Below, in pieces: positions 4,154-45,254 of a stretch of 46,301 bases of DNA (position 1 is its first letter; each line of letters begins with the position of its first letter). The notes beneath the pieces were generated by a model that had not been told where the DNA came from, ran no database searches, and worked only from the letters and a program-made list of their open reading frames with translations. The translations under genes were made by a program, and so were the position numbers. Source of the stretch: Candidatus Desantisbacteria bacterium CG1_02_49_89 (GTDB taxonomy: Bacteria > Desantisbacteria > UBA1551); contig MNUP01000051.1 of NCBI GenBank assembly GCA_001871075.1, positions 1 through 46,301 on the forward strand, read 5' to 3'.

Positions 4154-4165
4154 ACCTGCTCCTTT

Positions 4166-22592: not shown

Positions 22593-22744
22593 CCGAAGAG
22601 CCATCGATACAGTTCTGGCTCGAAGGTCCCTGTGTTGAGCTGCGCAGCAGCTACAGGGGCAAATACATCGACCCCGTTCTGACCCGAAGGTCCCTGTGTT
22701 AAGTTCCAGTTTCATCGGAACTACAGGGAAGGGGTTGCAGGGAC
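22593..22744 (+). repeat. Double-hairpin element family 1: one full copy, one 5'-truncated copy and a remnant
   Basis: CCGAA-GAGCCA-N12-TGGCTC-GAAG-GTCCCTGT-GTTG-stem-loop-ACAGGGG at 22593-22660. Second copy at 22666-22729. Confidence 0.85.
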
Positions 22745-23014
22745 AAAACTTTTTTACCACGAAGCTACATTTACAACCACAGGTTAACACAGGTTAACAC
22801 AGTTATGTAACTCAGACCTTCAGGTCTGATAAAATATCAGGGCTGAAGCCCTGAGTTATCCGCCCCGATGTCCATCGGGGCGAGACCTCGCCCCAAAGGG
22901 GTCCCTTTGGGACAATAAAATCCTTGCTGTTGCGTTGACACGCTGACACAGCGCCTGCCCGCCAATCTTGTTGGGAGGGATACGTTGATACGCTTTAAAA
23001 CATATGACTCGTAG

Positions 23015-23245
23015 CTATAACTTCAGCAGCTCCAGCACTTTCATCGTCGCGAACAGCGGCCATATAAAGCCCTTGAAAAAGCCCACCACACCGCCCCAGA
23101 ACGAAACCGCGTGCTTCATGAAATAGATCATCGCCCCGATCACCGTTAAAACATAGCAAAAACCCATGGCACCGCCGCCGTTATCCATTCTCATCCTCCC
23201 TGAAGAACCTTTCTTCTCCGCTTCCTGTCCGCAGCACTCATCCAT
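23015..23245 (-). CDS. Small two-TM membrane protein
   Basis: GGGGGA SD and two hydrophobic helices. Confidence 0.6.
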   Translation of the reverse strand: MDECCGQEAEKKGSSGRMRMDNGGGAMGFCYVLTVIGAMIYFMKHAVSFWGGVVGFFKGFIWPLFATMKVLELLKL

Positions 23246-23303
23246 ACTTCCCCCCTTTCCTTTCAATTTGCAATTTGCAATTTACAATTTACAATGATGG
23301 AAT

Positions 23304-24155
23304 TTATCCAATAAATTGCCTGAGGAATTTAAGCCCGAGCCTTAATCCCTCATCGGTGCGTTCCCCGCCGAAAACCGGGTCCTCGTGCTCGATGGCCATG
23401 TTCCCGTTAAAACCTACGTCGTTCAGCGCTTTCATGAACGCTTTCCAGTCTATCTCTCCCCATCCGGGTATGCGGTACCTCCACCAGCCCTCGCCGTATA
23501 TTCCCGTCCTGCTGTAAACGTCGCGCATGATCTCGGTGTCCTTCGCGTGCACGCAGAAGATCCTGTCCCCGAATTCGTATACCGCCTTAATATAATCAAC
23601 GCCCAGCCAGAACAGATGCGACGGGTCGTATTCAAGCCCTATCGCTTTTGACGGCACCGCGTCGAACAGCGCCTTCCAGGTAGCCGGGCTCATCCCTATG
23701 TTACCTATGGTTATCGGGTAGCTTCCCATGTGCGGGCAGTTTTCCATTGCGATCTTTACATTGTTCGCGTCCGCGGCCTTCGCGTATTCCTTAAATACCT
23801 CTTTATAAACAGGCAGGTTGTCCTGAAGCGTCTTGCTCCTATCTCCCCAGGTATTGCACGAGATCACTTCAACTCCGAGCTGTTTCGCGGTCTCCATTGT
23901 TTTTATCATAAACTTGTTGTTCCACGCGCGTTTTTCCTTATCCGGGTCAAGATGGTTGACAGTGCAGTGCAGCATCCCCACCGCTATCTTGTTCTCTTTG
24001 AACACTCCGGCCGCGTTCTCGATCTGGTCCTTTGTCATACTCGGCAGGTCAAGCGCCCCTCCCGGATTAACCACAACCTCCAGGCAGTCGAATCCTGCCT
24101 GCGCCGCGAACTTAACCCGCTCCTCTTTGTATTCCGTCACAAACCCCAGCTTCAT
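23304..24155 (-). CDS. Sugar phosphate isomerase/epimerase (xylose-isomerase-like TIM barrel)
   Basis: MEN, YDPSH, VHAKD, PGWGEIDW, IEHE. Confidence 0.9.
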   Translation of the reverse strand: MKLGFVTEYKEERVKFAAQAGFDCLEVVVNPGGALDLPSMTKDQIENAAGVFKENKIAVGMLHCTVNHLDPDKEKRAWNNKFMIKTMETAKQLGVEVISCNTWGDRSKTLQDNLPVYKEVFKEYAKAADANNVKIAMENCPHMGSYPITIGNIGMSPATWKALFDAVPSKAIGLEYDPSHLFWLGVDYIKAVYEFGDRIFCVHAKDTEIMRDVYSRTGIYGEGWWRYRIPGWGEIDWKAFMKALNDVGFNGNMAIEHEDPVFGGERTDEGLRLGLKFLRQFIG

Positions 24156-24218
24156 CTTACCCCCGTTTTAGATTCAGAGAGTCAAAGAGTCAGAGAGTCA
24201 AAGTAAATACTCTCTGTG

Positions 24219-24420
24219 CCGTAGGGTCATCAGTGTGGCTCTGACCCGCAGGTCCCTGTGTTGAGTTCCAGCGTTATACCGAAGAACCATTCGCCTCGTT
24301 CTGGTTCGTAGGTCCCTGTGCCGCAGCCCGCCACGAATATTGGCGGGCGTAGGTCCCCCCTGTCACTTTCGAAAGAAAGTAGGGGGGATCCTGGGGCTAC
24401 AGGGATCGGAACTACAGGGA
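24219..24420 (+). repeat. Triple-nested family 1 hairpin elements
   Basis: Outer 24219-24420, middle 24279-24405, inner 24321-24388. Confidence 0.8.
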
Positions 24421-24569
24421 ACTCCGTGCCTCTGTGGTTTGATTTTAACAATGCTCCAAGATGTTCCAACGGTTTATAACACATAACAGTTATCAGCGAT
24501 GAACGAAGAACGATGAACGAAGAACGATGCACGGCTTGCCCGCCAATTTTACTGGGCGGGATGCACGAA

Positions 24570-26519
24570 CTACAGCCACATCAAAAAATTCCCTTTCGCC
24601 CCTGTGAACAGGTCCACGATCACCCATGCTCCCACCGTGACGAATTCGCCGATTATCAGCCCCAGGAACACCGGCATCAGCATCCGGTAGATCTTTATCC
24701 CGCCGAGTTTCACTATAAGGACCTTTGCAAGCCACCCCATCATTGTCATGAACCACAGCCTGCAGGCTGTCCCGGATAATTCCCCTCCCGCGATCAGGTA
24801 TCCTATCGGGTGGAACGGCCACCAGATAAAAACGCGGCCCATCCAGTACAGGAAACCCGTGACCGCGGCTCCTATGCCCATGAACACCACGTCTTTCAGG
24901 CTTGCCTTAACAGGCGTGGTGATATAACTCATCGCGGTGTCCCAGTTATACTGCTTCGGGTACCCGCTCAGCCACCAGGTCTGCCCGAAATTTACCGCCC
25001 CGTACCTGTACGCCATGTTCAGTACCACCACGTAGGACACGACGACCATCAGGATGATAGCGAGCCACATCGAGATGTACAGGCTTTTCCTCTTTATGCC
25101 TGACGATTCCGCCATCTTTATGTTGTTCAGGAAGAACGGCATGAGCAGAACCCTTCCCTCAGCCGGAAAGATGTGGTTGAAGGCGTTCAAAGTCGAAATG
25201 CCCTGCGCGCCTATTACCTGGGACCCGGTCATGGATACGACCGCCTCAAGGGGGAACATGTCATACTGGACAAAGAACAGGCCTGATTCGCTCACGATCC
25301 TTGTTATGACCACCACTGTCAGGAATAATATCGCCGCCCACAGGAACACGGCCCAGAAAGGCGCTCCGGCTGCCATTGCCCAGAAGCAGATGAAAAGAAA
25401 ACCCCCGATAAGGCCGGCGAACGCCAGCAAATATGAGGCTCCCTCTTTCTTATCTTCGGAAGGCGCTCCCTTTCTGAACATTTTCTTTAGCGTATCTGCC
25501 AGTTCCCGCCTCATTGCCCAGAACAAAAGCACAGCGAACGCTATCATCCCTCCCAACTGCTGGTAAGCCAGGAACGACCGCGTGAACCAGCCCCTCACGA
25601 TCGGCATCTGGAAACCCATTGCCGCGCCTGCCACGACCTGCAGCCTGTTGACCCAGTAGAAAAACCATATACTGAAGGATAAAGATGTGGGGATAAGGTA
25701 CGCGAAACCCATTATGCTGGTGGACAGCTTTATCCAGATCGTTATCGAGTTCCACGGCTTGTCCGTGAAATTTATGTAATAGTCGTTCTTGAACGTGGGT
25801 ATTGACGGAAAATAGAAGTGGAGCCCCCTTATCGAATAAATGAGCACGGGAATAAGAAAACCCAGCCACATAAGCTTGTTCTTGAAAAATGAAGGGATGA
25901 GCGATTGCCCTGCCCCGCCTGCTTCTGGTTCTCCTTCCTTTACCATATCCACCGGGACAAGCGCCAGCGGAAAAATAAGTTTTTCGTTCTCCACCCACTG
26001 CTTGCGCACGATCACCGCCAGGCAGAACATCACAAGATACATCGCAAGCACAAGCAAAGTCCACCAGAACAAAGGCGTGATCCAATCCTTGTAAGGGATC
26101 GCCATGCCTTTCGGCAGGCCTTCGTAAAGGTACCTGATAGTATCCGGGTTCTTCGGCGCCATCCAGTCGGGTATCAGCTTGTGCAGGACCTCAACGTAGC
26201 GGTTCGTGGGGTTCGCGTAATAAAAAGGAGAGGCCATTATACCGATCGCGTACAAAACGTAGCCGAAAGAAGGGATCCCGCTCGACACGGCCATCATCGC
26301 GTAGATCAGCAGAAGTTCCTGCGGGGATAACGGGATCTTCAGCGCCTTCAGGAGCGTGTTAAGGACGAACACGAAAAAGAAGAATAAAAATATCGACCCC
26401 ACGGGCATATAGCTCGCGCCGGGCATAACCCCTATCCAGTGCAGGTCGCATACCGGAGTTATTATTCCCAGGGCCGCGACTGCCAGAAGCCCTATCACAA
26501 CCGCCCGCATTCTTAGCAT
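24570..26519 (-). CDS. DUF6785/DUF6784-type polytopic membrane protein (putative oligosaccharide/peptide transporter)
   Basis: Many TM helices. ELLLIY, RKQWVENEKLIFPL, WWPFHPIGY, PVFLGLIIGE. AAAGGAG SD before the ATG at 26519. Confidence 0.75.
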   Translation of the reverse strand: MLRMRAVVIGLLAVAALGIITPVCDLHWIGVMPGASYMPVGSIFLFFFFVFVLNTLLKALKIPLSPQELLLIYAMMAVSSGIPSFGYVLYAIGIMASPFYYANPTNRYVEVLHKLIPDWMAPKNPDTIRYLYEGLPKGMAIPYKDWITPLFWWTLLVLAMYLVMFCLAVIVRKQWVENEKLIFPLALVPVDMVKEGEPEAGGAGQSLIPSFFKNKLMWLGFLIPVLIYSIRGLHFYFPSIPTFKNDYYINFTDKPWNSITIWIKLSTSIMGFAYLIPTSLSFSIWFFYWVNRLQVVAGAAMGFQMPIVRGWFTRSFLAYQQLGGMIAFAVLLFWAMRRELADTLKKMFRKGAPSEDKKEGASYLLAFAGLIGGFLFICFWAMAAGAPFWAVFLWAAILFLTVVVITRIVSESGLFFVQYDMFPLEAVVSMTGSQVIGAQGISTLNAFNHIFPAEGRVLLMPFFLNNIKMAESSGIKRKSLYISMWLAIILMVVVSYVVVLNMAYRYGAVNFGQTWWLSGYPKQYNWDTAMSYITTPVKASLKDVVFMGIGAAVTGFLYWMGRVFIWWPFHPIGYLIAGGELSGTACRLWFMTMMGWLAKVLIVKLGGIKIYRMLMPVFLGLIIGEFVTVGAWVIVDLFTGAKGNFLMWL

Positions 26520-26557
26520 TTTTTTCACTCCTTTACCGTCGCTCAATTTACAATTTA

Positions 26558-26666
26558 TCCCTATAGTTCCTGTTAACGGAACTAACCATAGGGATCCTTT
26601 ATGGACAATTAACAATTTACCCCTTGCAGGTTTTTTATTAAACCCAAACGCAGGGGTTCTTTATGA
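26558..26666. repeat. Two family 2 bulged-hairpin elements inserted in a CAATTTA heptamer array
   Basis: 26558-26605 is identical to 38033-38080. 26620-26666 is a covariant copy. Confidence 0.85.
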
Positions 26667-26762
26667 ACAATGAAGGAATTTGTTGAAATAAAAACCTTGA
26701 ACCTCGGAACCACGGAACTTCGGAACCCCGGAACCAGTATTCTAACGATTTAACAACGATTC

Positions 26763-26880
26763 CCGGAGAGCCATAGACATGGCTCTGGCTCATAGGCCCT
26801 CGCGTTATGGTTTCTTCCTAAAGAACCCTCGTGTGTAGATTTCATAAAAAATCTATGAGGGGTAGAAACCTGCAGAGGGT
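26763..26880 (+). repeat. Family 1 element with a family 2 element nested in its loop (26816-26862)
   Basis: CCGGA-GAGCCA-N12-TGGCTC-ATAG-GCCCTCGC-GTTA-TGGTTTCT[insert]AGAAACC-TGCAGAGGG. Confidence 0.75.
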
Positions 26881-26984
26881 AACGATCTTATACCGGTTTA
26901 TAATAAACTAATTCCTTGCGGTTGCGTTGACACGCTGATACGCTGACACGTTGACACGCTTTTTTCCGTGGACTGTGGACTTCT

Positions 26985-28472
26985 TTAATCCCCGATCCCA
27001 ATCTCCGCCCACACAATATTTGTGTCTTGCCCGCAATCTGCTTCCAGAAGATTGTACCCGGACTGCAGCGCGGGAAGAGGAACTATAAAAACGCACGCCG
27101 GAGATTCCGGCCCGGGATCCGGTATTTTTACAACCCCTATGTTCGGGCAATCCTGGCCGTTCACTTTCACCCTGATCTCTTTCAGCATATCCTTGTTGTC
27201 CGCGGAAATGATTGCCGCTGCCTTTCCTATTACCGGCTTTGGCCCTATATGTATGCGGAATGACGCGGTCTTTCCAGGGCCGCACACCGCCGGCAGCGCG
27301 ATCACCCTGGTTTCTTCAGGCGCCCAGGTATCGGAATAAGTCACGATATGCCGCCGTTCCTTTCCTTCCATACGTTCCAAAGAGCCTATCTCCCGCAGCA
27401 GCTTCGGATAATTTTCCATCCCGTTCATGCAGGTTTCCGAATCCATATAGTTAAAAAGGTATATCCTGTCAGCTCCGCGGGAAAGCAGCGACGTTGCTAC
27501 TCCGCGCGCGGTTTCAATGGTATTTGCCTGCTGCCTGGCGCCGGGATAAGGCTGGACATTGAGTTCCAGGCCGGCGCAAAGCATTGCATTTGTGCCTTTT
27601 AAAAGGTCGCGCCATTCCTCTATCGGCATGTCGAATTCTATGGTTGCCCAGAAAGGCGTTGTCGTCAGACGCTGCACAAGTCCTTCGCGCGCCCATACGA
27701 TAGCATCCATGCCCAGCCCCTGCGCTGTAGCCGGCCTGGAAGGAACGCGCGCTCCGAGTTCTATAGTGTGCCCGCGTTTTTTCGCGGTCTCATCCATAAG
27801 TTCCCTGACCTCTCGCGTAAAACCGGTCAGGATCTCGCTTCCCTCCGCTTCATGGCCCGGCTTGAAATGAAAGCCGAACCGCATCCAGTCCATTTCAAAG
27901 CCGTCAAAATCATAGCGCCGGGCGAGCTCGCGGATAAGCGCCATGTGATGGGCGCGCACCTCTTCTTTCGCGTAATCAAAAGCCCTGTCAGTCCACGCTT
28001 CAAAACGGTCGGTCACGCGCCGCAGATCAGGACGCTTGCGCCACAGGTCTGAATGCAGAAAGCTGTCCGGGTTGTCAACGCAGTGCACGTCGTTCATGCG
28101 CATGCTTATCCACGGAGAAATGCCCGCCTTCCTGCTTTTCGCTATCCACCTGGCGTAGGGGTCGATACCTTTTTTGTGGAGCAGGAGCGCGTTGTGCGGC
28201 CACGCTCTCCACCTCAAGCTTTCCGAAGGTTTTATTCCCGCGAAGAACGGCTGGTCATCATTCCCTTTGGGATCATATCCCTTCCAGATCGGGTCCCAGA
28301 CCTCGCTCGCGTAGCTGGTACGCATAGCGTTGGGGCAGAATAATAATTCCTTCACGTCCGTGCCGGCGTAGGTATCTATGAGCCGGTCAACTCCTGCCTC
28401 GCACATGTCCTTGCTCTGCCTGGACCCGAAAAAATGGCTGTCATCCTCGTTCAGCGATATACCAGACATCAT
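26985..28472 (-). CDS. GHL10/DUF187-like TIM-barrel glycoside hydrolase
   Basis: NEDDSH, SMRMNDVH, YDFDGFEMDWMR, IYLFN. Confidence 0.7.
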   Translation of the reverse strand: MMSGISLNEDDSHFFGSRQSKDMCEAGVDRLIDTYAGTDVKELLFCPNAMRTSYASEVWDPIWKGYDPKGNDDQPFFAGIKPSESLRWRAWPHNALLLHKKGIDPYARWIAKSRKAGISPWISMRMNDVHCVDNPDSFLHSDLWRKRPDLRRVTDRFEAWTDRAFDYAKEEVRAHHMALIRELARRYDFDGFEMDWMRFGFHFKPGHEAEGSEILTGFTREVRELMDETAKKRGHTIELGARVPSRPATAQGLGMDAIVWAREGLVQRLTTTPFWATIEFDMPIEEWRDLLKGTNAMLCAGLELNVQPYPGARQQANTIETARGVATSLLSRGADRIYLFNYMDSETCMNGMENYPKLLREIGSLERMEGKERRHIVTYSDTWAPEETRVIALPAVCGPGKTASFRIHIGPKPVIGKAAAIISADNKDMLKEIRVKVNGQDCPNIGVVKIPDPGPESPACVFIVPLPALQSGYNLLEADCGQDTNIVWAEIGIGD

Positions 28473-28523
28473 TTATCCTTTGTAACCACAGGTTAACACA
28501 GGTTAACACTGTTTACCACGAAA

Positions 28524-28597
28524 GCCCTCTGCTGCTCCGAAGAACCCGGAGCAAAACGCGAGGACCTTCGCCCGCCAATAATCGTGGCGGGCTGCGG
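28524..28597 (-). repeat. Family 1 variant element in reverse orientation
   Basis: Minus strand: CCGCA-GCCCGCCA-N7-TGGCGGGC-GAAG-GTCCTCGC-GTTT-TGCTCCG-loop-CGGAGCA-GCAGAGGGC. Confidence 0.75.
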
Positions 28598-31869: not shown

Positions 31870-31937
31870 TAGATTGAATTATAATGAAATCCTTGCTTCT
31901 GATTCATAACTCATAACTCATAATTCATAATTATTCT

Positions 31938-33218
31938 CTAGTGTATCTCCTCATACTCGCTGCTTACAATAAGGCCTGACCTGTCAATAATATTGAAATA
32001 CCAGGCCGTCACTCCTTCGGGTAGTAAGGCAGAAACCATATTCTTTGACTCGTCAAGCTCAGCCGGTATTATCTCCCATGCGCGCTGCATCCAGGCGCCT
32101 TTGTCTTTCGTGTAATTAAATTCGGCTTTTTCAACCGGTACTTCGGCGCTGAATTTTACCCAGGCTTTGTCCTTATCCATACCCTGTTCCGTGATCCCGG
32201 CAAGCGGTTCCCCTTCTTTTAAAATACTGTCCGCGAACGCGCGGATCTCCTCCGGGTTTTCTCCCGCGCCGCCGTGGCCGTGCGGCATCCTGACCCTTAT
32301 GCACAGAGTCCTGCGGCTCTTCGGCAGGCGGTATGACTTCTGCAGCGAACTAAGCGGGTAGGCAAGATCGTTGGTTCCCGCTACCCAGAGCATCGGCATT
32401 GCCGCATTCCCGAGATAATTCGACGGGTCCCACATCTTGACCCACTTCCCCGCGTTCTTCTTTCCCATATTTTTAAAAGCCCCGGTCCATACCGAATCTT
32501 CATGAAGGAACCCGCACCCGTAAACAGGCACCGCGAACTTAAAACGGCTGTCAACGCCCGCGGCGATGCAGGTCAGGTACCCTCCCCACGAGATCCCCGT
32601 AATGCCCACGCGTTCCGCGTCCACCCCGGGAAAAGACCGCAGCAGCGAATCCGCGAGCACGATGCCGGCGATCGCGTGGAAAACCCACTGGTCTTCCGTT
32701 TTCCAGTTTATCTGCGCGAAACTCGCGTCCCAGCCGGCAGGGCCCGCGTTTTCATGGCGCGTCCAGTTGCCGTAAGTGCCGGAAGGAACGCAGCCGCACA
32801 GGTCCATCGCTATCGTGGCATAACCCCTGCTGACCCAAAGGTCGACCCACGCGTCGAAAGCGGTCCCTCCTCCGCCGTGCACAAGGACTATTGCCGGTAC
32901 TTTTTCACCCTTCTCTGCTTCCGGTATTCCGTACCACGCGAAAACCCTTGTTTGTTTCCCTTTGAACGGAAGCCCTTCGTAGAAGATCGCTTTTACGTTC
33001 TTATGGGGCGAAACAAAGTCGGCAGCGGGAAATACTTTCGGGACCGCGGCGAAAAGCGCGCCTGTGTCCCAGATACCTTCCTTTGTCATTTCTACCTCAG
33101 CTTTTACAGCGGCAGATTCAGCGCTGAACAAACTCCGGCTCATGCATAGAATGGCCAAGCAGATTAAAAAACCAGAGGAACAAAACCTTTGCAACCACGA
33201 ATTATCACGAATTAGCAC
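31938..33218 (-). CDS. Alpha/beta-hydrolase, acetylxylan-esterase-like (start uncertain)
   Basis: VHGGGG, nucleophile GISWGG, GTND, MPHGH. The first codons overlap a repeat. Confidence 0.8.
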   Translation of the reverse strand: MLIRDNSWLQRFCSSGFLICLAILCMSRSLFSAESAAVKAEVEMTKEGIWDTGALFAAVPKVFPAADFVSPHKNVKAIFYEGLPFKGKQTRVFAWYGIPEAEKGEKVPAIVLVHGGGGTAFDAWVDLWVSRGYATIAMDLCGCVPSGTYGNWTRHENAGPAGWDASFAQINWKTEDQWVFHAIAGIVLADSLLRSFPGVDAERVGITGISWGGYLTCIAAGVDSRFKFAVPVYGCGFLHEDSVWTGAFKNMGKKNAGKWVKMWDPSNYLGNAAMPMLWVAGTNDLAYPLSSLQKSYRLPKSRRTLCIRVRMPHGHGGAGENPEEIRAFADSILKEGEPLAGITEQGMDKDKAWVKFSAEVPVEKAEFNYTKDKGAWMQRAWEIIPAELDESKNMVSALLPEGVTAWYFNIIDRSGLIVSSEYEEIH

Positions 33219-33223
33219 GAATT

Positions 33224-33296
33224 CCGTAGAGTCATTAGCCCAGCTCTGACTCGAAGGTCCCTGTGTTAAGTTCCGGTTTTATCGGAACTACAGGGA
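33224..33296 (+). repeat. Family 1 double-hairpin element
   Basis: CCGTA-GAGTCA-N12-TGACTC-GAAG-GTCCCTGT-GTTA-AGTTCC..GGAACT-ACAGGGA. Confidence 0.88.
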
Positions 33297-36460: not shown

Positions 36461-37927
36461 CTATTTGTCCAAAACCACGATATCTTTGCTTCCTTCCTCC
36501 AGCACAAACTTCCCTGTCTCATTCAACGCCCGTGAGCTTCTTATCAATACATTCTGGGAATTTTCCAGCCGTATCAAAGACTCGGCTTTCTTGCTGCCTT
36601 CCGCCTTAAAACCGTCAAGTTCCATATCCTGCGCGTCATCACATACTATTGCCGGGCGCAGGTCCTCGGTTTCCAGCCTGAACGTGACATTGTTCAGCTT
36701 GATCCCTGCCGCGTGGTGTATATACAGCCCGTACGCGGGCAGGTCCCCGAACATGTTGATCTCCGGATAACCTCTTTCAAGGTCAGGCACATTGCGCCGC
36801 GCGCCCTGCTCTGCCGTTCCGCCTCCGGGAAAAGTAATGTCTATGTTACTGAAAGTTATATTCTCAGGCCTGGCTTGCGCGGTCCCGGTTATAGATATGC
36901 AAATATTGTCTTTCTTCGCGGCGCTTCCGGTGATATTTGAGAAAAGTATGTTTTGCAGTTTCCCCTTCGGCCAGTTGCTGTCATTAAACCGCGCCCAGAC
37001 GTCGGAGTCAAATTTCCAGCCCGCGAGGCGGATCGAAATAGGGCCTTTGACATTATCCATTACGATATTGGAGAACGTCATATTGCGTATGGCCGCTCCC
37101 ATTGACTCCTGTATCTTTATGCCGTTCAGGCCTGTGTCACGTATCACGCAGTTGCTCATGGTAACGTTCTCGATATCTTCGACCGCGTCAGGGCCTGCGC
37201 GGAAAGCCGCGCACCACGAACTGAGTATGCAGCTGGTGATCGTTATGTCCTTGCACGGATATCCTGGTTCTATGGCTTTCAACGCTATCGAATCGTCCTC
37301 GGAGTTAATATTGCAGTTCGAGATAAAAACGTCTTTGCACCCGTCAAGGTCTATGCCGTCGGAATTGGGCATTATAACGCTTTCTACCCTCAGGCCCTCA
37401 ATGCGCATCTGCCTGCACTGGATGGGATGGAAAGCGAAAGAAAGGGAATCAGCCAGAAGGATGCCTTCAACGCGCGTGTTCGAGCAGTTGCGCAGGCGTA
37501 TCAGCACTGTCCTTTCGATCTTTTCAGCCGCCACCATCCACCAGCCTTCTCCGTATTTTTCTTTCAGCGCCTTGCTGACCTCAACAGCAGAGCCGTCAAT
37601 GGTTCCCTGTCCCGTGATCGAAATGTCCGTGCAATCCGCAGCGTAAATAAGGGACCGGTTAATGTTCTTATACGGCATTTTCTGGTCTTTATGGTACAGC
37701 GATATGTCTGTCGTGCCCTTCAGGGTCGCGGTTGAAGCCAGGCGCAGTTCAATATGGCTTTTCAGCATGATTGTTCCGATAACATAAACGCCGCCTTCCA
37801 CTAATACCGTGCCTCCGCCTGCCTGCGAGCACGCGTCAACGGCTTTCTGTATCGCCTGCGTGTCAATGGTCCTTCCGTCTCCAACCGCCCCGTACTCCCT
37901 TACGTCGAATATTCTCGCCCTATCCAT
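36461..37927 (-). CDS. GH28 / pectin-lyase-fold glycoside hydrolase
   Basis: YGAVGDG..DT.AIQKA, NSDGID, EDDSIALK. Confidence 0.88.
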   Translation of the reverse strand: MDRARIFDVREYGAVGDGRTIDTQAIQKAVDACSQAGGGTVLVEGGVYVIGTIMLKSHIELRLASTATLKGTTDISLYHKDQKMPYKNINRSLIYAADCTDISITGQGTIDGSAVEVSKALKEKYGEGWWMVAAEKIERTVLIRLRNCSNTRVEGILLADSLSFAFHPIQCRQMRIEGLRVESVIMPNSDGIDLDGCKDVFISNCNINSEDDSIALKAIEPGYPCKDITITSCILSSWCAAFRAGPDAVEDIENVTMSNCVIRDTGLNGIKIQESMGAAIRNMTFSNIVMDNVKGPISIRLAGWKFDSDVWARFNDSNWPKGKLQNILFSNITGSAAKKDNICISITGTAQARPENITFSNIDITFPGGGTAEQGARRNVPDLERGYPEINMFGDLPAYGLYIHHAAGIKLNNVTFRLETEDLRPAIVCDDAQDMELDGFKAEGSKKAESLIRLENSQNVLIRSSRALNETGKFVLEEGSKDIVVLDK

Positions 37928-37935
37928 TTTAACTC

Positions 37936-38008
37936 CCGAAGGGTCATTGGCTCGGTTCTGACCCGAAGGTCCCTGTGTTAAGTTCCAGTTTCACCGGAAC
38001 TACAGGGA
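37936..38008 (+). repeat. Family 1 double-hairpin element abutting the GH28 ribosome-binding site
   Basis: CCGAA-GGGTCA-N12-TGACCC-GAAG-GTCCCTGT-GTTA-AGTTCC..GGAACT-ACAGGGA. Confidence 0.88.
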
Positions 38009-38230
38009 CAAAATACAACAATTTGCAATTTATCCCTATAGTTCCTGTTAACGGAACTAACCATAGGGATCCTTTATGGACAATTTGCAATTTAAAATGA
38101 AGGATTTTTTGTATTTAACGATTCTGCAGCAGTTTTTAATAAGGAACAGGCCAAACTATTTCCTTGCATCATTGAGTGATTTCAGACAATTCCTTGTTGT
38201 TGCGTTGACACGCCTTAAACTGACCACTGA

Positions 38231-39463
38231 CTACTGACCACTTTTTGTATACAGGTATTCGACCATCCACAGCCACCTTCTATAGCTTTGCCCTTTTGCT
38301 TCCCTCAGGGCCTTTTTCGCGCTCTCTAAGTCAGCAGTGCTGATCTTGTCCTTCTCAAGCAGTTCGATATATTTTTTAGCAAGGCCTTCTCCGCCGAATA
38401 GCGGGGAAAGTTTCTTCGCGGTAAACTCTTCCCAGGTCATTTTCGGGTCATCGCAGAAATCCGCAACGCTCAGGTAATTGATCTCGTTCACTGTGCTGGT
38501 TTGCGGGACCTCGCCGAACAAAGTTACTCCGTCCATTCCCGCTTCCGCAACCTTTTTAACCAGTTTCGCGAAGTCCTTCGCCACCAGCCTGCGCCTTTCG
38601 TTATTCCACTGGCTTCCCATATGCGTCCGTATAACCTTCGGGTGCGTAGGAAGTTTTGCGGCTTTCTCAGGTGTCATTTTGCTCAGGAACTGCGGCAGGT
38701 ATACGTGGTCAATGCAGAACTGGAGTATAGAGCCTTCCGGAAGCGCCTGCAAAGGCTTGTGAAGCTCCGTGTCAAGGATATTGTTAAAATAGCACTCGCA
38801 TATCGGCAGGATACCGGGCCGGGCGTCCCGGGCTTCTTTTATCAAAGGCGGCAGCAGTTCCACGATATCTTCGGGTGACCAAAATCCTGTGCGCTTAGAC
38901 TTGCTCAGGCATTCTTCGCACTTGCACAGGCCGTAATCCCCTGTCTCAAAGTTTATTCCCCCGATCTCAAAGGTCTCGCACAGCCACCTTATTGAGTCCT
39001 TCATCCATTTTCGGTTCTCTTTCTTTGAAGGGCATCCGATGCGCAGGTACGGATGGCCCGGATACGGCTGGCCCACTGCTTCCAGTTCCGGATGCCTGTC
39101 AAGCCAGGTGGACAGGTTGAATTCGTGTTTTCCTTCCCAGTAAACCCCGCCGTAGGAATTCACGCCTATGCCCGGGATAACGCGCACGTTTTTCCCGCGC
39201 CCGTATTTGCAGATCTCCTGCGCCGCTCCTGTCCCGCCGTGGCAGTCGCGCAGGAACCCGTATATGATCACTCCGGTATAATTATTTGCCGCGCAAAAAT
39301 CAATGCAATTTTTGTAATCCTGTATGAAAACCTCGGGTTTTTTATAATATGGATTAGAGCACCCGTATTCCTGGATGCCGTCAACCAGAGGGGTCCAGAC
39401 CATGCTGTGGTCCCACGTCCAGAAAAATCTGTATTTCAGCTTTGTATCTTTTGTTTTATCCAT
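38231..39463 (-). CDS. Conserved hypothetical TIM-barrel protein with a CxCxxC motif
   Basis: Long ORF with AAAGGA SD. YRFFWTWDH, ETGD..CKCEEC. Confidence 0.65.
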   Translation of the reverse strand: MDKTKDTKLKYRFFWTWDHSMVWTPLVDGIQEYGCSNPYYKKPEVFIQDYKNCIDFCAANNYTGVIIYGFLRDCHGGTGAAQEICKYGRGKNVRVIPGIGVNSYGGVYWEGKHEFNLSTWLDRHPELEAVGQPYPGHPYLRIGCPSKKENRKWMKDSIRWLCETFEIGGINFETGDYGLCKCEECLSKSKRTGFWSPEDIVELLPPLIKEARDARPGILPICECYFNNILDTELHKPLQALPEGSILQFCIDHVYLPQFLSKMTPEKAAKLPTHPKVIRTHMGSQWNNERRRLVAKDFAKLVKKVAEAGMDGVTLFGEVPQTSTVNEINYLSVADFCDDPKMTWEEFTAKKLSPLFGGEGLAKKYIELLEKDKISTADLESAKKALREAKGQSYRRWLWMVEYLYTKSGQ

Positions 39464-39559
39464 CTTTATTCCTTTATTGGACTATTTTCGATGTCTGGAG
39501 AATCATCATAAGCACAAATGGGGTAAAATAAGATAGATATTACCCTATTTAGCGTTCTT

Positions 39560-40603
39560 TTACCCTATTTTAACCCACTTAGCGCTTCGGCCGATGCCCG
39601 TTGACTTTATCTTGCCATCATCTCTTAACCGGTGCAAAACTATCCTTATCATATCCCGGGTTACATTAGGGCAGGCATTCTCGACATCAGCAATGGAAAA
39701 CGGTTTAATGGATCCTTCTACGGCTGATCTGACCTGCTCTGTCTTCGAGCCTTTCCCTTTGAAAGCGGCAAACCTGGACTCAAATTCCTTATACGCAGCT
39801 ATCAGGGTGCCGTAGAAATACCTGAGCCACGGAAAAACATCGTGCCTGCCTTCCTGCCAGCCTTGCGAAGACCTGAGCAGGACCTCATAGTAGTTTTTGC
39901 GCGTTGTCTCGGTTATCCTTTCCAGGCTGATATACCTGCCCACCCCGTATCCGGCCTTGTAAAGAAGCAGGAGGGTCAGAAGCCTTGCTATCCTGCCGTT
40001 GCCGTCAAGGAACGGGTGGATGCACAGGAGATCGAGGATAAAAAGCGGTATCAGGATAACCGGGTCAGGAAATTCCTCTTTTACGCGGTTGTTATAAAGG
40101 GATAGCAGTTTGTTCATGAACAAAGGCGTGTCTTCGGCTGAAACCGGGCGGAAGCGGACGGTCTTTGAACCGTTGGGCTTTATTTCCACTATCTCGTTGT
40201 CCCATTTTTTCCAGGCGCCTGATTGTACCGCGGTGTAGCGGTAGATCATTGAATGCAGTTTCAAAATAGTTTCTTCTGAAACAGGTATGTCTTTATAGCC
40301 GCTGTGTATAAGATTAAGCGCGTCTCTGTAACCCGCTATTTCCTGTTCGGGCCGGGTGCGGGGCTGCGCGCCCTTTTCAACAAGCTCTTTGATCCTTTTA
40401 AGGGGCGCGAAAACTCCCTCTATCCTGTTTGAGGATTCAGCGCTTTGTATTATCGCGCTCTCAAGCAATTTTTCAAGGGTTTCAGGGGACTGCCTTGCGA
40501 ACAGCGCTTCCCTGCCCCTGTATTCCCCTATCGCTCTGATATCTGACAGGATCCCTGCCGGGAATTCTAATTTTTTTAGGAAACCATCCTCTATCGATCT
40601 CAT
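39560..40603 (-). CDS. Fic-family protein (adenylyltransferase)
   Basis: HPFLDGNGRIAR catalytic loop, N-terminal SNRIEG inhibitory motif, C-terminal wHTH. Start reassigned to MRSIED behind a CAAGGA SD. Confidence 0.92.
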   Translation of the reverse strand: MRSIEDGFLKKLEFPAGILSDIRAIGEYRGREALFARQSPETLEKLLESAIIQSAESSNRIEGVFAPLKRIKELVEKGAQPRTRPEQEIAGYRDALNLIHSGYKDIPVSEETILKLHSMIYRYTAVQSGAWKKWDNEIVEIKPNGSKTVRFRPVSAEDTPLFMNKLLSLYNNRVKEEFPDPVILIPLFILDLLCIHPFLDGNGRIARLLTLLLLYKAGYGVGRYISLERITETTRKNYYEVLLRSSQGWQEGRHDVFPWLRYFYGTLIAAYKEFESRFAAFKGKGSKTEQVRSAVEGSIKPFSIADVENACPNVTRDMIRIVLHRLRDDGKIKSTGIGRSAKWVKIG

Positions 40604-40708
40604 TTTTATTCCTTGCACCTCGGAACCACGGAACTTCGGAACCAATATCAGTTTTTAACAAATGACAAAAGACTAATGACAAATGACTGCTTCTATATAT
40701 TAAAGTTT

Positions 40709-40736
40709 ATTATATCTCTTTTTATGGAAAAAGCAA
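40709..40736 (-). promoter_or_regulatory. Possible sigma70 promoter for fic
   Basis: TTGCTT-16-TATAAT. Confidence 0.4.
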
Positions 40737-40740
40737 GGAA

Positions 40741-40771
40741 AAATAAAAAAACTGCCAGTTTCCCAGCAGTT
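40741..40771 (-). terminator. Intrinsic terminator after the DUF1598 gene
   Basis: ACTGCTGG-GAAA-CTGGCAGT followed by a T-run on the minus strand. Confidence 0.7.
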
Positions 40772-40852
40772 CCTTACAGTTGCGCTGATACGTTGACACA
40801 TTGACACGCTTTAAACCGTGGACCATTGACCGTGGACTGTGGACTGCCTAAA

Positions 40853-42238
40853 TCAGAAATCCCAGTAAAGCGTATTCGCAGCCGGTCTTGTTTTCAAAAC
40901 CTTGTCCTGTATTTGCTCGGGCTTCCCTGGGGCAGCTGCTGGAGCGGCCCGCCCGGCATTAAGCCGGGACGAGGTCTCGCCCCGATGGTCATCGGGGTGG
41001 ACTGAAACACTTTTACCGGTTTTGCTAACTGAACCAGTTTTGACAGCTGGGGCACTTTTAACGGCTTTGCTTCTAATGAAATTACTTTTGCTGATCTCTA
41101 TTTCTATCCCGACCCCGCCGCAGCTTGGCAGCCACAGCCTGTAGGTTTGATAGCCGTCCTGAAGGTCTATCCTGCTTTCATATTTCTTGACATTGGTCCG
41201 CCCCGGCAAAGTCCGGTCAACAGGAGTTTTCGGGATCGAGTATTGCTTTAAAAAATATCCCAGGTCCAGGCCTGACTTTTCCTGGGCAGACATGTATTTC
41301 ATTACCTTGGCGATGGCCACAAAACGGAAAAGATTCTCAAGCTCAACGTAGATCGGCCTTCTTGCCGCTATCTCGCTGTATTTCTCCGAAAAAGCCTCTG
41401 TGAACTTCAGGGCGAGCGGGCTTCCGCCGCCGTAACCCGCGATCTTTCCCTTGTTCAGGTATTGTTCTTCGGTAAGAAGTATTACCGGGCATTTTTCGAT
41501 CATGACCGCGTTATCTTCCTCCCGGTAAAGGTTCTTCCCGGGAAAGAACCAGAAACGGTTCAGGGAAAAACCCGAGAACGCAGCCTCTCCTTTCTGGATA
41601 GCGTTTTTGGCTTCCTCCATTGTCATATCCATAAGGCTGGAAAAACCGGGTATATCCGGGTTATCCGAACCGTTTACCAGGCTTTTCATGTCATAGTCCG
41701 CTTTTACCATAACCCGGGCAAAATGAGTGTCAAAGGGAATGCCCAGCACGCGGACCGCCTGCGGGGATTTGCCGATCCTTTCCCATTCAACGATATATTC
41801 TTCTTCGGTGATACCTGAAGGATCTTCCCTGTTCTTCTTCCCCAGCGCGAAAAGCCTCTGGATAACCGCGGGGTCCGGGTCGATCGAACACCCGGGATTA
41901 GCATAGTAATTCGTTTTCCCGCGCAGTTCGGCGTATTCATACCAGGAATTCCTGAGCGCTACCGCCAGGTCCTCGAGATAAAGAAGCGGCGCCCCGGGGA
42001 TCACGCTGCCCACCAGGATAATATCCTTGTTTGCCGCGTCGATAATATAACCTTCGACCGTGTTCAGCCCGCCCAGCCGGGTGATCCCGTCAGGAACAGC
42101 TCCGGTCTTATCGAAGATTTCAAGTTTCTGCTGAAGTGTTTTCAGAGAAACAGCTCTTTTTGCCCCGTAGGTGCTTCCCGCTGCCGCAGCGCTTAAAATA
42201 AAAACCAAAAAAATTATCAGCAGTATTTGCTTTTTCAT
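40853..42238 (-). CDS. DUF1598-like secreted protein
   Basis: Signal peptide MKKQILL, GCSIDP, FARVMVKADYDMK, RFWF, GGV. Confidence 0.7.
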   Translation of the reverse strand: MKKQILLIIFLVFILSAAAAGSTYGAKRAVSLKTLQQKLEIFDKTGAVPDGITRLGGLNTVEGYIIDAANKDIILVGSVIPGAPLLYLEDLAVALRNSWYEYAELRGKTNYYANPGCSIDPDPAVIQRLFALGKKNREDPSGITEEEYIVEWERIGKSPQAVRVLGIPFDTHFARVMVKADYDMKSLVNGSDNPDIPGFSSLMDMTMEEAKNAIQKGEAAFSGFSLNRFWFFPGKNLYREEDNAVMIEKCPVILLTEEQYLNKGKIAGYGGGSPLALKFTEAFSEKYSEIAARRPIYVELENLFRFVAIAKVMKYMSAQEKSGLDLGYFLKQYSIPKTPVDRTLPGRTNVKKYESRIDLQDGYQTYRLWLPSCGGVGIEIEISKSNFIRSKAVKSAPAVKTGSVSKTGKSVSVHPDDHRGETSSRLNAGRAAPAAAPGKPEQIQDKVLKTRPAANTLYWDF

Positions 42239-42400
42239 AGGAACAACGCTTTTACAACCACGAATTTTCACGGATTTCCACGAATCTTCTAACATTTTCT
42301 CTTAACATCGTTTTCTAACATCTTTTCGTAACATCTTTACTTAACAATCCTGGCGACGCACGATGTTACGATGTTACGATGCACGGTATTTAAGCTAAGG

Positions 42401-43039
42401 CTACCGTCTTCTACTCTTCGTCTTTTCCAGAAGCTGCTTTTTCTTTTTTTCTATTCTCTGTTCTTCCGCAGAGGGCTGGGCTGCCGCTAATCCGGCGATC
42501 TTCTGGGCAAGATTTCTGACCGCGGGCAGCAGATTCTCTTCTGTGCTTGCCTCTTCAGCTTCCGCTTTCTCGATCTTCCCTGACTCTACATTGACAATTT
42601 TTACGTTGAGAATATAGACGTTACCTACTTTCCCGATAGAGCCGGTAAACATCTTGCGCACTCCGAGCAGCTGCCCCAGTTCCACGATGCATTCCTGGCT
42701 CGTGCAGCCGGACATCTGGAATTTCTGTTCTTTCAGGATAGATTCCATGTTCTCTCTTGTGACTATATTGAATTTGTTCGTATTTACAAGCTGGGTGCGC
42801 AGGTAATCCGAAACAGTGGATACCATGCCCGCGGAAACCCCTTCCTTTGCATCCAGTTCCATTACAGCCGCGGTTGTTGTTTTGGTATCCGCAGCTGTTG
42901 TTTTTGTCTCCGCCGCTTGCCCTGAACCTGCCGTGTCCGCCAATTTTGTTGGGTGGAAGCCTGCGAATGGTTCAGCGGCGCGGCAGTTTACAGAAAAAAG
43001 TATCAACAACCCGGTTAAAAGATATAAGTATTTTTTCAT
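42401..43039 (-). CDS. CsgG/HfaB-like (TolB-N fold) secreted protein
   Basis: F.IVTRENMESILKEQKFQMSGC...ELGQLLG...GSIGKVG...VESGKI. Confidence 0.75.
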   Translation of the reverse strand: MKKYLYLLTGLLILFSVNCRAAEPFAGFHPTKLADTAGSGQAAETKTTAADTKTTTAAVMELDAKEGVSAGMVSTVSDYLRTQLVNTNKFNIVTRENMESILKEQKFQMSGCTSQECIVELGQLLGVRKMFTGSIGKVGNVYILNVKIVNVESGKIEKAEAEEASTEENLLPAVRNLAQKIAGLAAAQPSAEEQRIEKKKKQLLEKTKSRRR

Positions 43040-43183
43040 TTTATTCTCCCTAATAGATGAAAAACGAATAGTGGAATTCGAAAACACACGGCTAAACAGT
43101 CCGAGAATATTCGAAGAAAGATGTCAAGACCTGACTCCAGCTTCCGAAAAGTTCGTGGCGGGAAATGGTTCAGTGGCCTGTCC

Positions 43184-43786
43184 CTATTTTACTATTTTTC
43201 TGTTGTGCAAGGCATACGCCTCGTCGATAAACTGCTCCATGGTCTTTTCCTCAATAACCGATGGTTGTTCATAATTGATCTTGTATTTCTTCATCATCCG
43301 CACTTCCAGTTCCTCATTGGCTATCAACCCGCCGTCCTCCATTATGTGCTTTACCTTAACCCCTCTCTTGGAGAGATAATGGGACACGAGAGCAAACCTG
43401 TGGCACACAAAAGGATCGTCCTCGGAACACATTATGGCCGTCCTGCGTTGTTTTTTAAGAAGCTCCACCACCCGGCCCAGCCCACTCTGAAAAGTGAGGG
43501 TCCTGCTCACCTTCTCGTAATCGACGACCCTGGTATCGTTTATAAAAAGGGATGGGTTGCTGTAATGGTCTCCTAAACGATCTCCCATATAGATATATTC
43601 TATCCCCGAATACGCCAGATCCTTTGCCAGCGGTTCCCTGTTGAACTGCTGAAGAACCCAGTTGCTGTGGGGATTACTCCGCACGTCTACGACATACCCC
43701 ACCTGGTGCTTGCTGAGGAGCCTGACGAAATAATCTATGTCGTGTCTGGAATGCCCGATTGTGTAACAGATCAGATCATCGTTCAT
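43184..43786 (-). CDS. DUF488-family protein
   Basis: YTIGHS, VDVRSNP, MCSE.DP..CHR. Start reassigned to MNDDL. Confidence 0.88.
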   Translation of the reverse strand: MNDDLICYTIGHSRHDIDYFVRLLSKHQVGYVVDVRSNPHSNWVLQQFNREPLAKDLAYSGIEYIYMGDRLGDHYSNPSLFINDTRVVDYEKVSRTLTFQSGLGRVVELLKKQRRTAIMCSEDDPFVCHRFALVSHYLSKRGVKVKHIMEDGGLIANEELEVRMMKKYKINYEQPSVIEEKTMEQFIDEAYALHNRKIVK

Positions 43787-43809
43787 TTTTTTAGACCTTG
43801 TGATTTTAT

Positions 43810-44010
43810 TTAATCGCCCTCTTTTCTTCTTTTCAGACGGTATATTATCCAGATAATGCCGGAAACGACAAACCAGATGCCGAAAACAAGCGTCATCGTG
43901 AAAAATACCGGCTCTTCGACCTTCCAGATGCCGTATACCACATTGTGCAGAACAGCGGAACCTGCCGCCGCTCCCAGGAACCAAAAGGGATTCTTTATTC
44001 TTTTCAGCAT
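43810..44010 (-). CDS. Small membrane protein
   Basis: Two hydrophobic segments, LHN..YG...EEPVFF. Confidence 0.55.
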   Translation of the reverse strand: MLKRIKNPFWFLGAAAGSAVLHNVVYGIWKVEEPVFFTMTLVFGIWFVVSGIIWIIYRLKRRKEGD

Positions 44011-44185
44011 GGCGGCTCATGTCCTTTATTTAAACCCATGACCCATGACACATGACTCATGACTGTATTTAAAAGGCCCGTCCCGGCTGCATTTTATAAT
44101 CACCGTCCCTAAAGGACCCCTGCGTCTTGCTTTCATTAGAAAGCTGCAGGGGTAATCATCTTCTGATAATCACTGTAATCATTCT

Positions 44186-45079
44186 TTATTTAATGCTTTC
44201 GTCCGCCAGTATCCCGTAACCGGCGAAGAAATTGTCGAACAGTTTCGAGAATTTGGGCCAGTATTCCTCGATATTCTTGTAAGTGCCGTCTTTGTCCTTG
44301 TTCTTCCAGTCGTCCTTTTTTATCCCCGGCCCTCCGGGGATCTTAAGGCAGGCGGAAAACGCCAGCACTGTTTCTTTTCCTGATTTACCTGGAGCGTATA
44401 TCTCCACAAAGCAATCCCCTATCATTATGTCATCGTTCGTATAGCGCAGCAGGACCACCTGCACGACCATTACCGCGTCAGCGCCGGCTTCGGTGACCAG
44501 GGCGGGGAATAATTTCTTCCTGTTTTCTTCGCCGTTTAAAAATTTCAGGCCCAGCGCCGGGCTCATCCACTGGTTCTGGTTCAGGTATTCCCACCAGGCC
44601 CCTCCTTTTCCGGAAGAATGCGGCGTGATCCCGGTATAATATGTCGTGTCCAGCGCCTGGTATGACGCGCATGAATTAACCGTTTCCACCGGGAGGATCT
44701 CTATTTTCGCGGGCTTAAAATTGTTCTGGAATGACTGGGCTATAAGGGGGGTGAGCGCTTCCACCTGCGGTTTTGACTTGCCGATTATGCTCTCTTTCGC
44801 CGATTCCGTGGCGACCATTTCCACTATTCCAAGCAGTCCGCTGCCCCACCCTCCGAAGCCGAAAACAGCGTACCTGACATTAAATGCCGCCAGCGCGACC
44901 TTTTTGGGTATCGCGGCTATCTGCCCCTTGGTGGCCTTGAAATCGGTCACCACCCTTATGTTGTCGTTGATCCACCTTTTCGCCTCCTTGTCGTTATCAA
45001 ACGCGAACGCTCCAACCATCGGCAAAAACATCCCGATAAAAATAAACGCTGCTGCTGATACTACTGCTGATCTTTTCAT
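44186..45079 (-). CDS. Secreted hypothetical protein
   Basis: GGAGG SD and signal peptide MKRSAVVSAAAFIF. Confidence 0.65.
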   Translation of the reverse strand: MKRSAVVSAAAFIFIGMFLPMVGAFAFDNDKEAKRWINDNIRVVTDFKATKGQIAAIPKKVALAAFNVRYAVFGFGGWGSGLLGIVEMVATESAKESIIGKSKPQVEALTPLIAQSFQNNFKPAKIEILPVETVNSCASYQALDTTYYTGITPHSSGKGGAWWEYLNQNQWMSPALGLKFLNGEENRKKLFPALVTEAGADAVMVVQVVLLRYTNDDIMIGDCFVEIYAPGKSGKETVLAFSACLKIPGGPGIKKDDWKNKDKDGTYKNIEEYWPKFSKLFDNFFAGYGILADESIK

Positions 45080-45088
45080 TTTTCCTCC

Positions 45089-45254
45089 TCGAAGCGCCAT
45101 TGACACAGCTCTGGCGCGAAGATCCCTGTGTTAAGCTCCGAAGGAGCTACAGGGACCGAAGAGTCATTCGCTAAGTTCTGACTCGTAGATCCCTGCGTTG
45201 AACTCCGAAGGAGTTGCAGGGACCGNNNNNNNNNNTCCGAAGGAGTTGCAGGGA
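45089..45254 (+). repeat. Head-to-tail array of 67-bp family 1 units spanning an N gap
   Basis: Units at 45089-45155 and 45156-45222. A third unit starts at 45223, and a unit ends at 45254 after the 10 N. Confidence 0.85.

Follow-up and report, generated by a model that had tools for sequence, protein, structure and literature searches.

The stretch of DNA analysed here, referred to as the window, is the 46,301-nt contig MNUP01000051.1 of Candidatus Desantisbacteria bacterium CG1_02_49_89. It forms contig C135 of a metagenome-assembled genome (G000; 2.48 Mb, 150 contigs, GC 48.9%, 93.5% complete) and is present in 24 groundwater or aquifer DNA sequencing runs, with no RNA run listed among those that contain it. 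Its long open reading frames (ORFs) lie on the minus strand and are ordinary; among their products are LexA, ClpB, pyruvate kinase, glycoside hydrolases and a restriction-modification system of the AlwI type. Between positions 22,593 and 45,254 the window also carries copies of a double hairpin, a unit of 66-77 nt in which two hairpins of ~33-48 nt each abut directly on one strand. The double-hairpin family is real, multi-copy and under strong structural constraint.

The family was recovered in the window by a repeat finder. A 19-base degenerate core of the unit has 39 exact matches in G000, 0 for the reversed pattern and 0 in 40 other genomes; 21 single matches in public genomes fall in unrelated taxa, and the two that were examined consist of the core word without the remaining element. 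A profile hidden Markov model built from 46 strict matches gave 135 nhmmer matches in G000 at E<1, 104 at E<1e-4 and 81 full-model copies. A covariance model (CM), R1, built on 77 of these full copies (omitted were a nested copy of 90 nt, a duplicate and two others) gave 114 matches at E<=0.01 in the 2.48-Mb genome. The window, at 2% of genome length, carries about one-tenth of the genome's copies. No published description of the unit was found in a literature search at title and abstract level.

Hairpin 1 occurs in two types. Type A (67/81 full copies) has a 6-bp stem, which takes one of six perfectly paired versions in 61 of the 67 copies and contains one G.T in four copies and one mismatch in two. 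Its loop is 12 nt long in 65/67 copies. An earlier note on this DNA had described this loop as constant in length and different in every copy; 56 of the 65 loops are indeed distinct, but their core is framed as T-Y-R-R-C-Y-Y-N-G-Y-T-C, with five positions nearly fixed and five others varying almost wholly by transitions. Base-pair-like covariation among the columns of the 12-nt loop was not found. Type B (14/81 full copies) has a longer, GC-rich stem and a 7-nt loop. Hairpin 2 consists of an outer stem of 7 bp, where 8 bp had been proposed, a 5' bulge of 4-5 nt (mostly GTTR) and an exchangeable inner hairpin with at least a dozen differing, internally complementary versions, one of which is the type-B hairpin in either orientation.

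Both hairpins are preceded by a G-N-A-G motif (YCGNAG) in which N is any base. In a mutual-information scan, the unit's first base and the base directly after the second foot were found to covary. Among 77 copies, foot columns 1-38 hold C-G in 67, U-A in 7 and other combinations in 3, and columns 2-37 hold C-G in 73, U-A in 3 and another combination in 1, with the two foot N positions pairing in 41/77 copies only. Lying on either side of hairpin 1, the two GNAG feet seem to pair with each other as a symmetric G-N-A/G-N-A internal loop that two covarying pairs close. Because their outer neighbours covary as pairs, the feet are best read as internal-loop strands that lengthen hairpin 1, and since they flank this hairpin, the GNAG motif may be part of an internal loop and not a free tag. 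The comparison of the foot with the tetranucleotide of HUH/Y1 substrates, drawn in the earlier note, is not supported, as the feet do not look like a constant free tag such as GTAG. Hairpin 2 begins at the base immediately after the closing pair of the hairpin-1 extension, and the unit boundaries coincide with the hairpin bases. Flanks read by eye, with no script, showed no terminal inverted repeats and no target duplication.

Integron attC sites were considered and rejected. The bulge and the start of the inner stem fit GTTRRRY, but the 5' side has no inverse core site to match, nor do the copies delimit gene cassettes, as judged by reading the sequence with no integrase search made.

All of the at least 11 copies first reported in the window are present as placed, ten as separate CM matches and the eleventh (24321) as the innermost unit of a nest:

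22593..22659, plus strand: full copy of 67 nt, with foot, type-A hairpin 1, foot and hairpin 2 with a short inner hairpin (CM 79.4 bits; two-hairpin fold z -3.3)
22661..22729, plus strand: 5'-truncated copy directly after the first, without the 5' foot and most of the hairpin-1 5' arm (nhmmer model 10-73; CM 55.4 bits)
24219..24278, plus strand: outer copy of a nest with three levels, 5' part as far as the inner-hairpin loop (nhmmer model 1-57 and sequence; CM match 24219-24274)
24279..24320, plus strand: middle copy, 5' part (foot, hairpin 1, foot, 5' arm of the outer stem), within the inner loop of the outer copy (nhmmer model 1-42; CM match 24279-24355)
24321..24393, plus strand: innermost copy, made up of a type-B hairpin 1, a foot and a variant hairpin 2 whose outer stem is C-rich (from the sequence)
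24394..24420, plus strand: 3' parts of the middle copy (24394-24405) and of the outer copy (24406-24420) (from the sequence and the fold)
26763..26879, plus strand: divergent copy whose inner stem hosts a small hairpin unit of a different kind (CM 42 bits for 26763-26835; sequence)
28526..28597, minus strand: full copy with type-B hairpin 1, an 8-bp stem including the closing G-C and a 7-nt loop (CM 45.2 bits)
33224..33296, plus strand: full copy of 73 nt, with the top CM score in the genome (CM 92.2 bits; DNA fold z -5.8)
37936..38008, plus strand: full copy, its 5' end just before the start of the minus-strand ORF ending at 37927 (CM 90.1 bits)
45089..45155, plus strand: first unit of a head-to-tail tandem array (CM 78.1 bits)
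45156..45254, plus strand: second unit (45156-45222), then an assembly gap (N, 45226-45235) and the last unit's 3' end (CM match for 45156-45222; metagenome contig)

The innermost copy of the nest (24321..24393) takes the place of the 5' half of the middle copy's inner hairpin, an arrangement of a kind seen at five further places in the genome; it gives only a weak nhmmer match (E 0.85) and no separate CM match. The whole nest (24219-24421) folds as nested hairpins in which all host stems are kept (-52.9 kcal/mol, z -7.2). Removal of copies had been said to restore the host repeats without duplication, and the flanks of 24219-24420 and of 28526-28597 do read as continuous. The N run at 45226-45235 conceals a tandem array, the contig L258 from the same organism containing one unit and four identical 67-nt units without spacers. 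Metagenome contigs from four runs break at the repeats.

The structural constraint was assessed by a covariation test of three helices on the 77-copy alignment (1403 stem cells, 19 pairs, 500 shuffles). Standard pairs occupy 98.1% of the stem cells, compared with 85.0 +/- 0.5% in shuffled alignments and 29-47% for slid partners. Changes on both sides of a pair occur in 204 cells, a count reached in 0/500 shuffles (58 +/- 7 when shuffled), and 13 of the 19 pairs contain compensatory change; because the copies are related, counting cells makes independent events look more numerous than they are, though this does not touch the number of pair types or the slid controls. An unguided mutual-information scan also puts the predicted stem pairs first. 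The two-hairpin architecture, its covarying stems and the structural selection postulated in the earlier note are thereby upheld on a larger set of copies.

DNA folding yields two hairpins on either strand (z -2.5 to -5.8). Over the 81 full copies, 1647 stem cells comprise 1546 Watson-Crick pairs, 59 G.T, 23 A.C and 19 others, and this excess of G.T points to folding of one particular strand. On the written strand the ratio of G.T to A.C is 35:15 in gene-antisense copies and 24:8 in sense copies. Since the excess is present in both gene orientations, the constraint tracks the element's own strand and not host transcription, which favours folded single-stranded DNA or the element's own transcript over a role inside host mRNAs.

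These strand data bear on the possibility that the family is kept for an RNA function, as a structured 5' untranslated or intercistronic element or as a small RNA, its spread being secondary or old. We regard this as unlikely. G.U is tolerated in the covariation, as an RNA function would allow, but the element strand that carries the G.T excess is the same whichever way the copy faces, and both orientations occur between co-directional genes (46 copies antisense, 29 sense). Some copies are placed suggestively: those at 45089 and 37936 in the window adjoin the starts of minus-strand ORFs, and 11/59 copies lie within 11 bases of a stop codon. Genome-wide, however, the median distances to the start-side and stop-side genes are alike (106 and 99 nt). 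A further arrangement is found in G001, a genome of the same order and the only other species of the phylum in the genome collection. No full double-hairpin unit was found in G001, which does contain four modules of hairpin-2 architecture (foot, outer stem, GTTW bulge, inner hairpin; reversed-pattern control 0) at loci L181, L183, L193 and L195. Each of the four begins right next to a Shine-Dalgarno sequence and start codon in reverse complement, an arrangement that recurs in only 1/81 full copies of G000. Di Nocera 2013 (PMC3733652) argues that many repetitive extragenic palindromic (REP) sequences act as RNA. Comparison with Rfam, as had been advised, gave 0 matches at gathering score over the whole window; at E<=1 the region 22500-24500 has two far-subthreshold matches, one outside the element and one overlapping the nest (24289-24440; 17.7 bits versus a gathering score of 80). 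Insertion into loops and the gain and loss of copies between species, described below, would be left unexplained by an RNA function.

Copy positions were assessed against a rough longest-ORF model that covers 86% of the genome and in which 1468/1643 adjacent ORF pairs (89%) are co-directional. Long ORFs are avoided by 98 of 104 copies. The written strand is mostly opposite to GC skew and gene direction, orientation relative to GC skew being 66 versus 38. As a general property of the genome, the sign of GC skew matches the predominant gene strand in 62/62 contigs of >=15 kb.

Flanking sequences are 8-mer repeats that end in YGTG, repeats of 11-mers, further short repeats or palindromes. Ten of the 81 full copies lie precisely at the apex of a perfect palindrome of >=6 bp, compared with 0.66 +/- 0.78 in 200 flank permutations (maximum 3), and all ten share the junction ..CCGR, unit, TCGG... 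One host palindrome holds the unit in either orientation. At least eight copies lie inside the hairpin-1 loop of another copy, and this nesting is position-specific, with one subfamily placed just before the last three bases of the loop and another after the fourth. In six cases the variant with a C-rich hairpin 2 lies behind the first bulge base of hairpin 2. The recurrent palindrome-apex insertion site has GATC at its centre; separately, positions 359-4804 of the window encode an AlwI-type restriction endonuclease between an N6/N4 DNA methylase and a D12-class adenine methylase, beside the LexA gene.

A short tandem repeat lies in the 30-nt flank of 27/81 copies. This association may be trivial because such repeats fill nearly every intergenic stretch of the window, where 2-5 tandem copies of a 7-11-base unit occur, the unit varying from place to place (63 rows of Tandem Repeats Finder output). 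Similar short tandem repeats occur in heterocyst-forming cyanobacteria. Examples in the window are:

5375-5405, 15357-15389, 22778-22802, 23264-23295, 24170-24203 and 26699-26736: short tandem repeats
28487-28509, 31902-31932, 33196-33223 and 44034-44063: further short tandem repeats, with many more elsewhere in the window

The variable loop had been thought to carry specificity information. Comparison of the 12-nt loop with its own flanks gave a longest shared word of 4.25 for identity (3.99 +/- 0.11 permuted) and 4.03 for complementarity (3.96 +/- 0.11 permuted). Both are at chance level, the small excess in identity being due to one tandem partial copy. Given also that the loop varies almost entirely by transitions on a purine/pyrimidine frame, the idea is not supported.

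The wealth of repeats raises the possibility that the units are themselves immobile and that the mosaic is a product of recombination, gene conversion and slippage during replication between intergenic regions rich in repeats. The abundance of short tandem repeats in nearly every intergenic stretch of the window, the association of subfamily with flank type and the four identical tandem units from 45156 onward would all sit comfortably with such passive processes. It is harder to see how they would produce the same unit boundaries in settings as unrelated as repeats of 8-mers and of 11-mers, palindrome apexes and loops of the unit's own family, an apex placement 15x the permuted expectation or a unit in either orientation within one host palindrome. 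Differences between strains and species, set out next, cut both ways, and on balance we consider passive spread improbable.

A metagenome scan for the unit returned at least 123 stretches, most from the same organism at >=99% identity. Eighty of these were examined over +/-1.5 kb around the copies; two (L223 and L244) are chance matches in unrelated DNA, and eleven come from a related species with flanks 82-92% identical to G000. A search with ClpB gave matches of 59-69% across many phyla, and a close relative was not found. Seven alignable intergenic sites were picked for a copy in the relative, the reverse case being unsampled. At five of the seven, aligned on the flanking genes, the copy in the relative has no counterpart in G000. 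The comparison of filled and empty sites called for in the earlier note thus shows gain or loss between related species, but the whole intergenic stretch differs at these five, as passive spread would have it, and no exact filled/empty pair for the double hairpin was found between G000 and the relative. A sixth site keeps the same copy, with 65/67 bases identical (the differences are at a foot N and one loop base) in an alignment that is ~87% identical including flanks. At the seventh, a palindrome apex, the relative has a type-A copy and G000 a type-B copy with a nested unit; the presence of different variants at one orthologous apex also argues against passive spread.

Compared with copies elsewhere in G000, those of the relative show 89-98.6% identity, and the two species have the same subfamilies. 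Together with the site differences, the shared subfamilies and near-identical copies indicate a family older than the split and still turning over. On this evidence the family is constrained in sequence as well as structure, and the sharing of subfamilies suggests long persistence. Within the species, none of the joints listed from four metagenome runs removes exactly one unit. Strain-level variants near copies are changes in 8-mer copy number and indels of other elements, not of the double-hairpin unit, which is again what passive spread would lead one to expect. In one population variant three 8-mers are missing. An exact filled/empty pair does exist for a different, 31-base hairpin element, present at C30 ~28225 in G000 and absent from L273 of the related species; it is inserted within an 8-mer host repeat (..CGT^G..), with at most two ambiguous junction bases.

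Nesting and tandem-repeat placement also recall the very small dispersed repeats of heterocyst-forming cyanobacteria, for which Elhai and co-workers reportedly proposed in 2008 a spread through RNA and reverse transcription. The Nostoc repeats are said to share with the double hairpin nesting, placement in short (heptamer) tandem repeats and a fold kept by compensatory change. They differ in being single hairpins of 21-27 nt in cyanobacteria, whereas the double hairpin is ~70 nt long, has two hairpins and belongs to a phylum represented by two species in the genome collection. Spread of the present family through an RNA copy is highly unlikely in our estimation. G000 does contain one reverse-transcriptase gene fragment (C119:37000-37624; PF00078, E 3.6e-12), but this sole match is a single gene cut by the contig end and lies ~18 kb from the nearest copy. 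We take it, from its motifs, to resemble the reverse transcriptase of diversity-generating retroelements. Neither a tail nor a 5' truncation pattern of the retro-copy type is seen among the copies, whose truncations fall at the hairpin-1 arms.

Candidate DNA-processing enzymes are more plentiful. G000 has ten matches to PF01797 (Y1/HUH), three of them above the NCBIfam cut-off for REP-associated tyrosine transposase (RAYT), and G001 has three Y1 matches. Two such RAYT genes of 163 aa, 86% identical, lie at C23:1740-4540, each between two hairpins of a different repeat family in a REPtron- or REPIN-like layout with tandem repeat copies upstream. That family, with two small hairpins within a 5-bp outer stem, comprises ~141 hairpins genome-wide, with window copies at ~22800-22860. 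An IS200-type gene on C83 is flanked by its own GC-rich hairpin, which differs from the double hairpin; one Y1 gene on C111 is flanked by a third hairpin family; and four Y1 genes of 222-239 aa are flanked by inverted repeats like those of terminal-inverted-repeat-associated tyrosine transposases. RAYT-like proteins are encoded on C23 (two), C111, C13, C100, C38, C114 and C80. No match to IS110 or TnpB domains was found in G000. The link to Y1 enzymes made in the earlier note therefore holds to the extent that the genome has many Y1/HUH genes, but no Y1, IS110 or TnpB gene flanks a copy.

The reading we favour, which we judge evenly poised between right and wrong, is that the double hairpin is a REP-like, non-autonomous, structure-recognised single-strand DNA element. 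An HUH/Y1 enzyme of the RAYT (TnpA-REP) type would recognise the unit in its folded single-stranded DNA form and would cut at both hairpin bases, so that the unit could be excised or copied as a single strand. It would then be joined into exposed single-stranded DNA such as hairpin loops; in a hairpin-rich genome, exposed single strands would mostly be loops. The acting enzyme is possibly among the Y1 proteins of the genome, as a candidate only. A non-autonomous single-stranded DNA or RNA element had been proposed from the start, and the REP-like multi-copy pattern and the favoured fold of one strand are consistent with either form.

Precedents for these steps come from two papers. REPs are described there as hairpins whose 5' tetranucleotide is in some families degenerate, and with common G.T pairs (Di Nocera 2013, PMC3733652; Corneloup 2021, PMC8266576). 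RAYT-group Y1 enzymes bind REP hairpins as folded single strands, require the 5' tetranucleotide and cleave next to the hairpin; in one system a change in the tetranucleotide moves the cut site, and bulged and perfect REPs are read by different RAYT groups (PMC8266576). The position of the tetranucleotide could match the guide sequences of IS200/IS605 ends. The introduction of PMC8266576 describes the mode of spread of REP-type repeats as still unsettled.

Several observations weigh against the REP-like reading. The double hairpin flanks none of the ten Y1 genes, the nearest being 2,012 nt away, although in a 93.5%-complete, repeat-broken assembly this absence is unproven, and no Y1 gene was found in the 80 metagenome loci. 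The orientation bias is modest (66:38), and the IS608 case predicts a bias in the opposite direction. Left flanks end in ..YGTG, ..CCGA, ..ATTT, ..CCTT, ..GCTA and others, and with at least five kinds there is no fixed target tetranucleotide of the IS608 type. The wholesale differences between species at five sites, the failure to find an exact filled/empty pair and the inflation of cell counts by relatedness belong here too. The feet look paired and not free, with any base at N, and the E. coli enzyme accepts no change in GTAG. The head-to-tail layout of the two hairpins likewise fits REPs poorly; according to PMC3733652, head-to-tail REP pairs are rare, lacking or less frequent than expected in most genomes.

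These misfits leave room for a different reading, rather unlikely but deserving attention, in which the genome carries a new class of element defined by YCGNAG and one or two hairpins. Such mobile, structure-specific elements would integrate into the single-stranded loops of other hairpins, producing Russian-doll nesting, with the double hairpin the most successful among them. A trans-acting enzyme encoded away from its substrates, either a RAYT newly used or another nuclease, would read the G-N-A/G-N-A loop.

Compared with GTAG REPs, BIMEs and REPtrons, the double hairpin shares small, mostly intergenic hairpins in ~100 copies, each hairpin within the 20-50 nt of a REP unit, a short conserved motif ending in AG at the 5' base of the hairpin, compensatory stems with frequent G.T, one bulged and one perfect hairpin type, a mosaic or clustered layout and several RAYT genes in the genome. 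It departs from them in having two dissimilar hairpins head to tail without a spacer, where REPs are usually inverted pairs; in its YCGNAG motif with a free N, two copies of which appear to pair across hairpin 1; and in its framed 12-nt hairpin-1 loop, its exchangeable hairpin-2 inner hairpin and the lack of an element-flanked RAYT gene. Among its 24 GTAG families, PMC3733652 describes none in its text with a layout of this kind. Like REPINs (Bertels and Rainey 2011, PMC3116915), it is a two-hairpin replicative unit with near-identical tandem arrays, clusters formed by insertion into or next to existing units, and subfamilies common to both related species. Unlike the double hairpin, a REPIN consists of two inverted REPs that form one long hairpin round a spacer, whereas the hairpins here are direct and fold separately. 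A REPIN-like family with an internal RAYT does exist in G000 but is different from the double hairpin. The ends of IS200/IS605 elements and PATE-type gene-less derivatives offer a further parallel, with a hairpin at either end on one strand, neither terminal inverted repeats nor a visible duplication and, 5' of each hairpin, a short motif at the position of the guide sequences of those elements. Here the differences are the lack of a fixed left-flank target, the other hairpin at the lone IS200-type gene (C83) and the lack of TnpB.

Other small elements share the intergenic space of G000. About 58 GTAG-tagged hairpins have the classical REP form. A module of 28-32 bases (T, CGNAG foot, A, type-B-like hairpin) occurs at ~41 places in the genome (45 pattern matches, a few of them by chance). 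It is found as TTT^..^A inside the 4-nt loop of GTAG- or GTAAC-tagged hairpins, for example at C23:3674, 3753 and 4498, and occupies the loop of 12/58 GTAG-tagged hairpins and of 10/141 hairpins of the other family, uninterrupted loops being 4 nt. A conserved box of ~30 bases (TTTAAATC.., CGAAG foot, 5' arm of the hairpin-2 outer stem and a run of A) occurs at 16 places outside the window, for example on C50, C21, C114 and C84. It lies upstream of ORFs on the same strand, at distances of 16-521 bases, sometimes with the matching 3' arm. This TTTAAATC box could be promoter-like or a degenerate relative of the double-hairpin family. A repeat of ~76 bases with an outer stem and an inner hairpin lies in 7-mer repeats at 26544-26619, 26606-26681 and 38019-38094 of the window; two copies are 96% identical, and a similar unit stands upstream of a RAYT-like gene on C13. 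The repeat pairs 15128-15186/30966-31024 and 15273-15328/22846-22901 are 56-59 bases long, 95-96% identical and contain small GC-rich hairpins, one of which hosts a double-hairpin unit elsewhere in the genome.

G000 is an unusually legible record of REP-type spread, with ~100 sharply bounded copies, nested landing sites, coexisting hairpin families and ten Y1 genes, some arranged as classical REPtrons, and because nested copies record where units have landed, it is of interest to students of REP-like spread. Enzyme-substrate pairs could be sorted by simple in vitro cleavage. For the organisms themselves, a candidate phylum of which the genome collection has only two species is seen to possess a REP-like, repeat-rich intergenic architecture, and such repeats break the short-read assemblies through which these organisms are seen.

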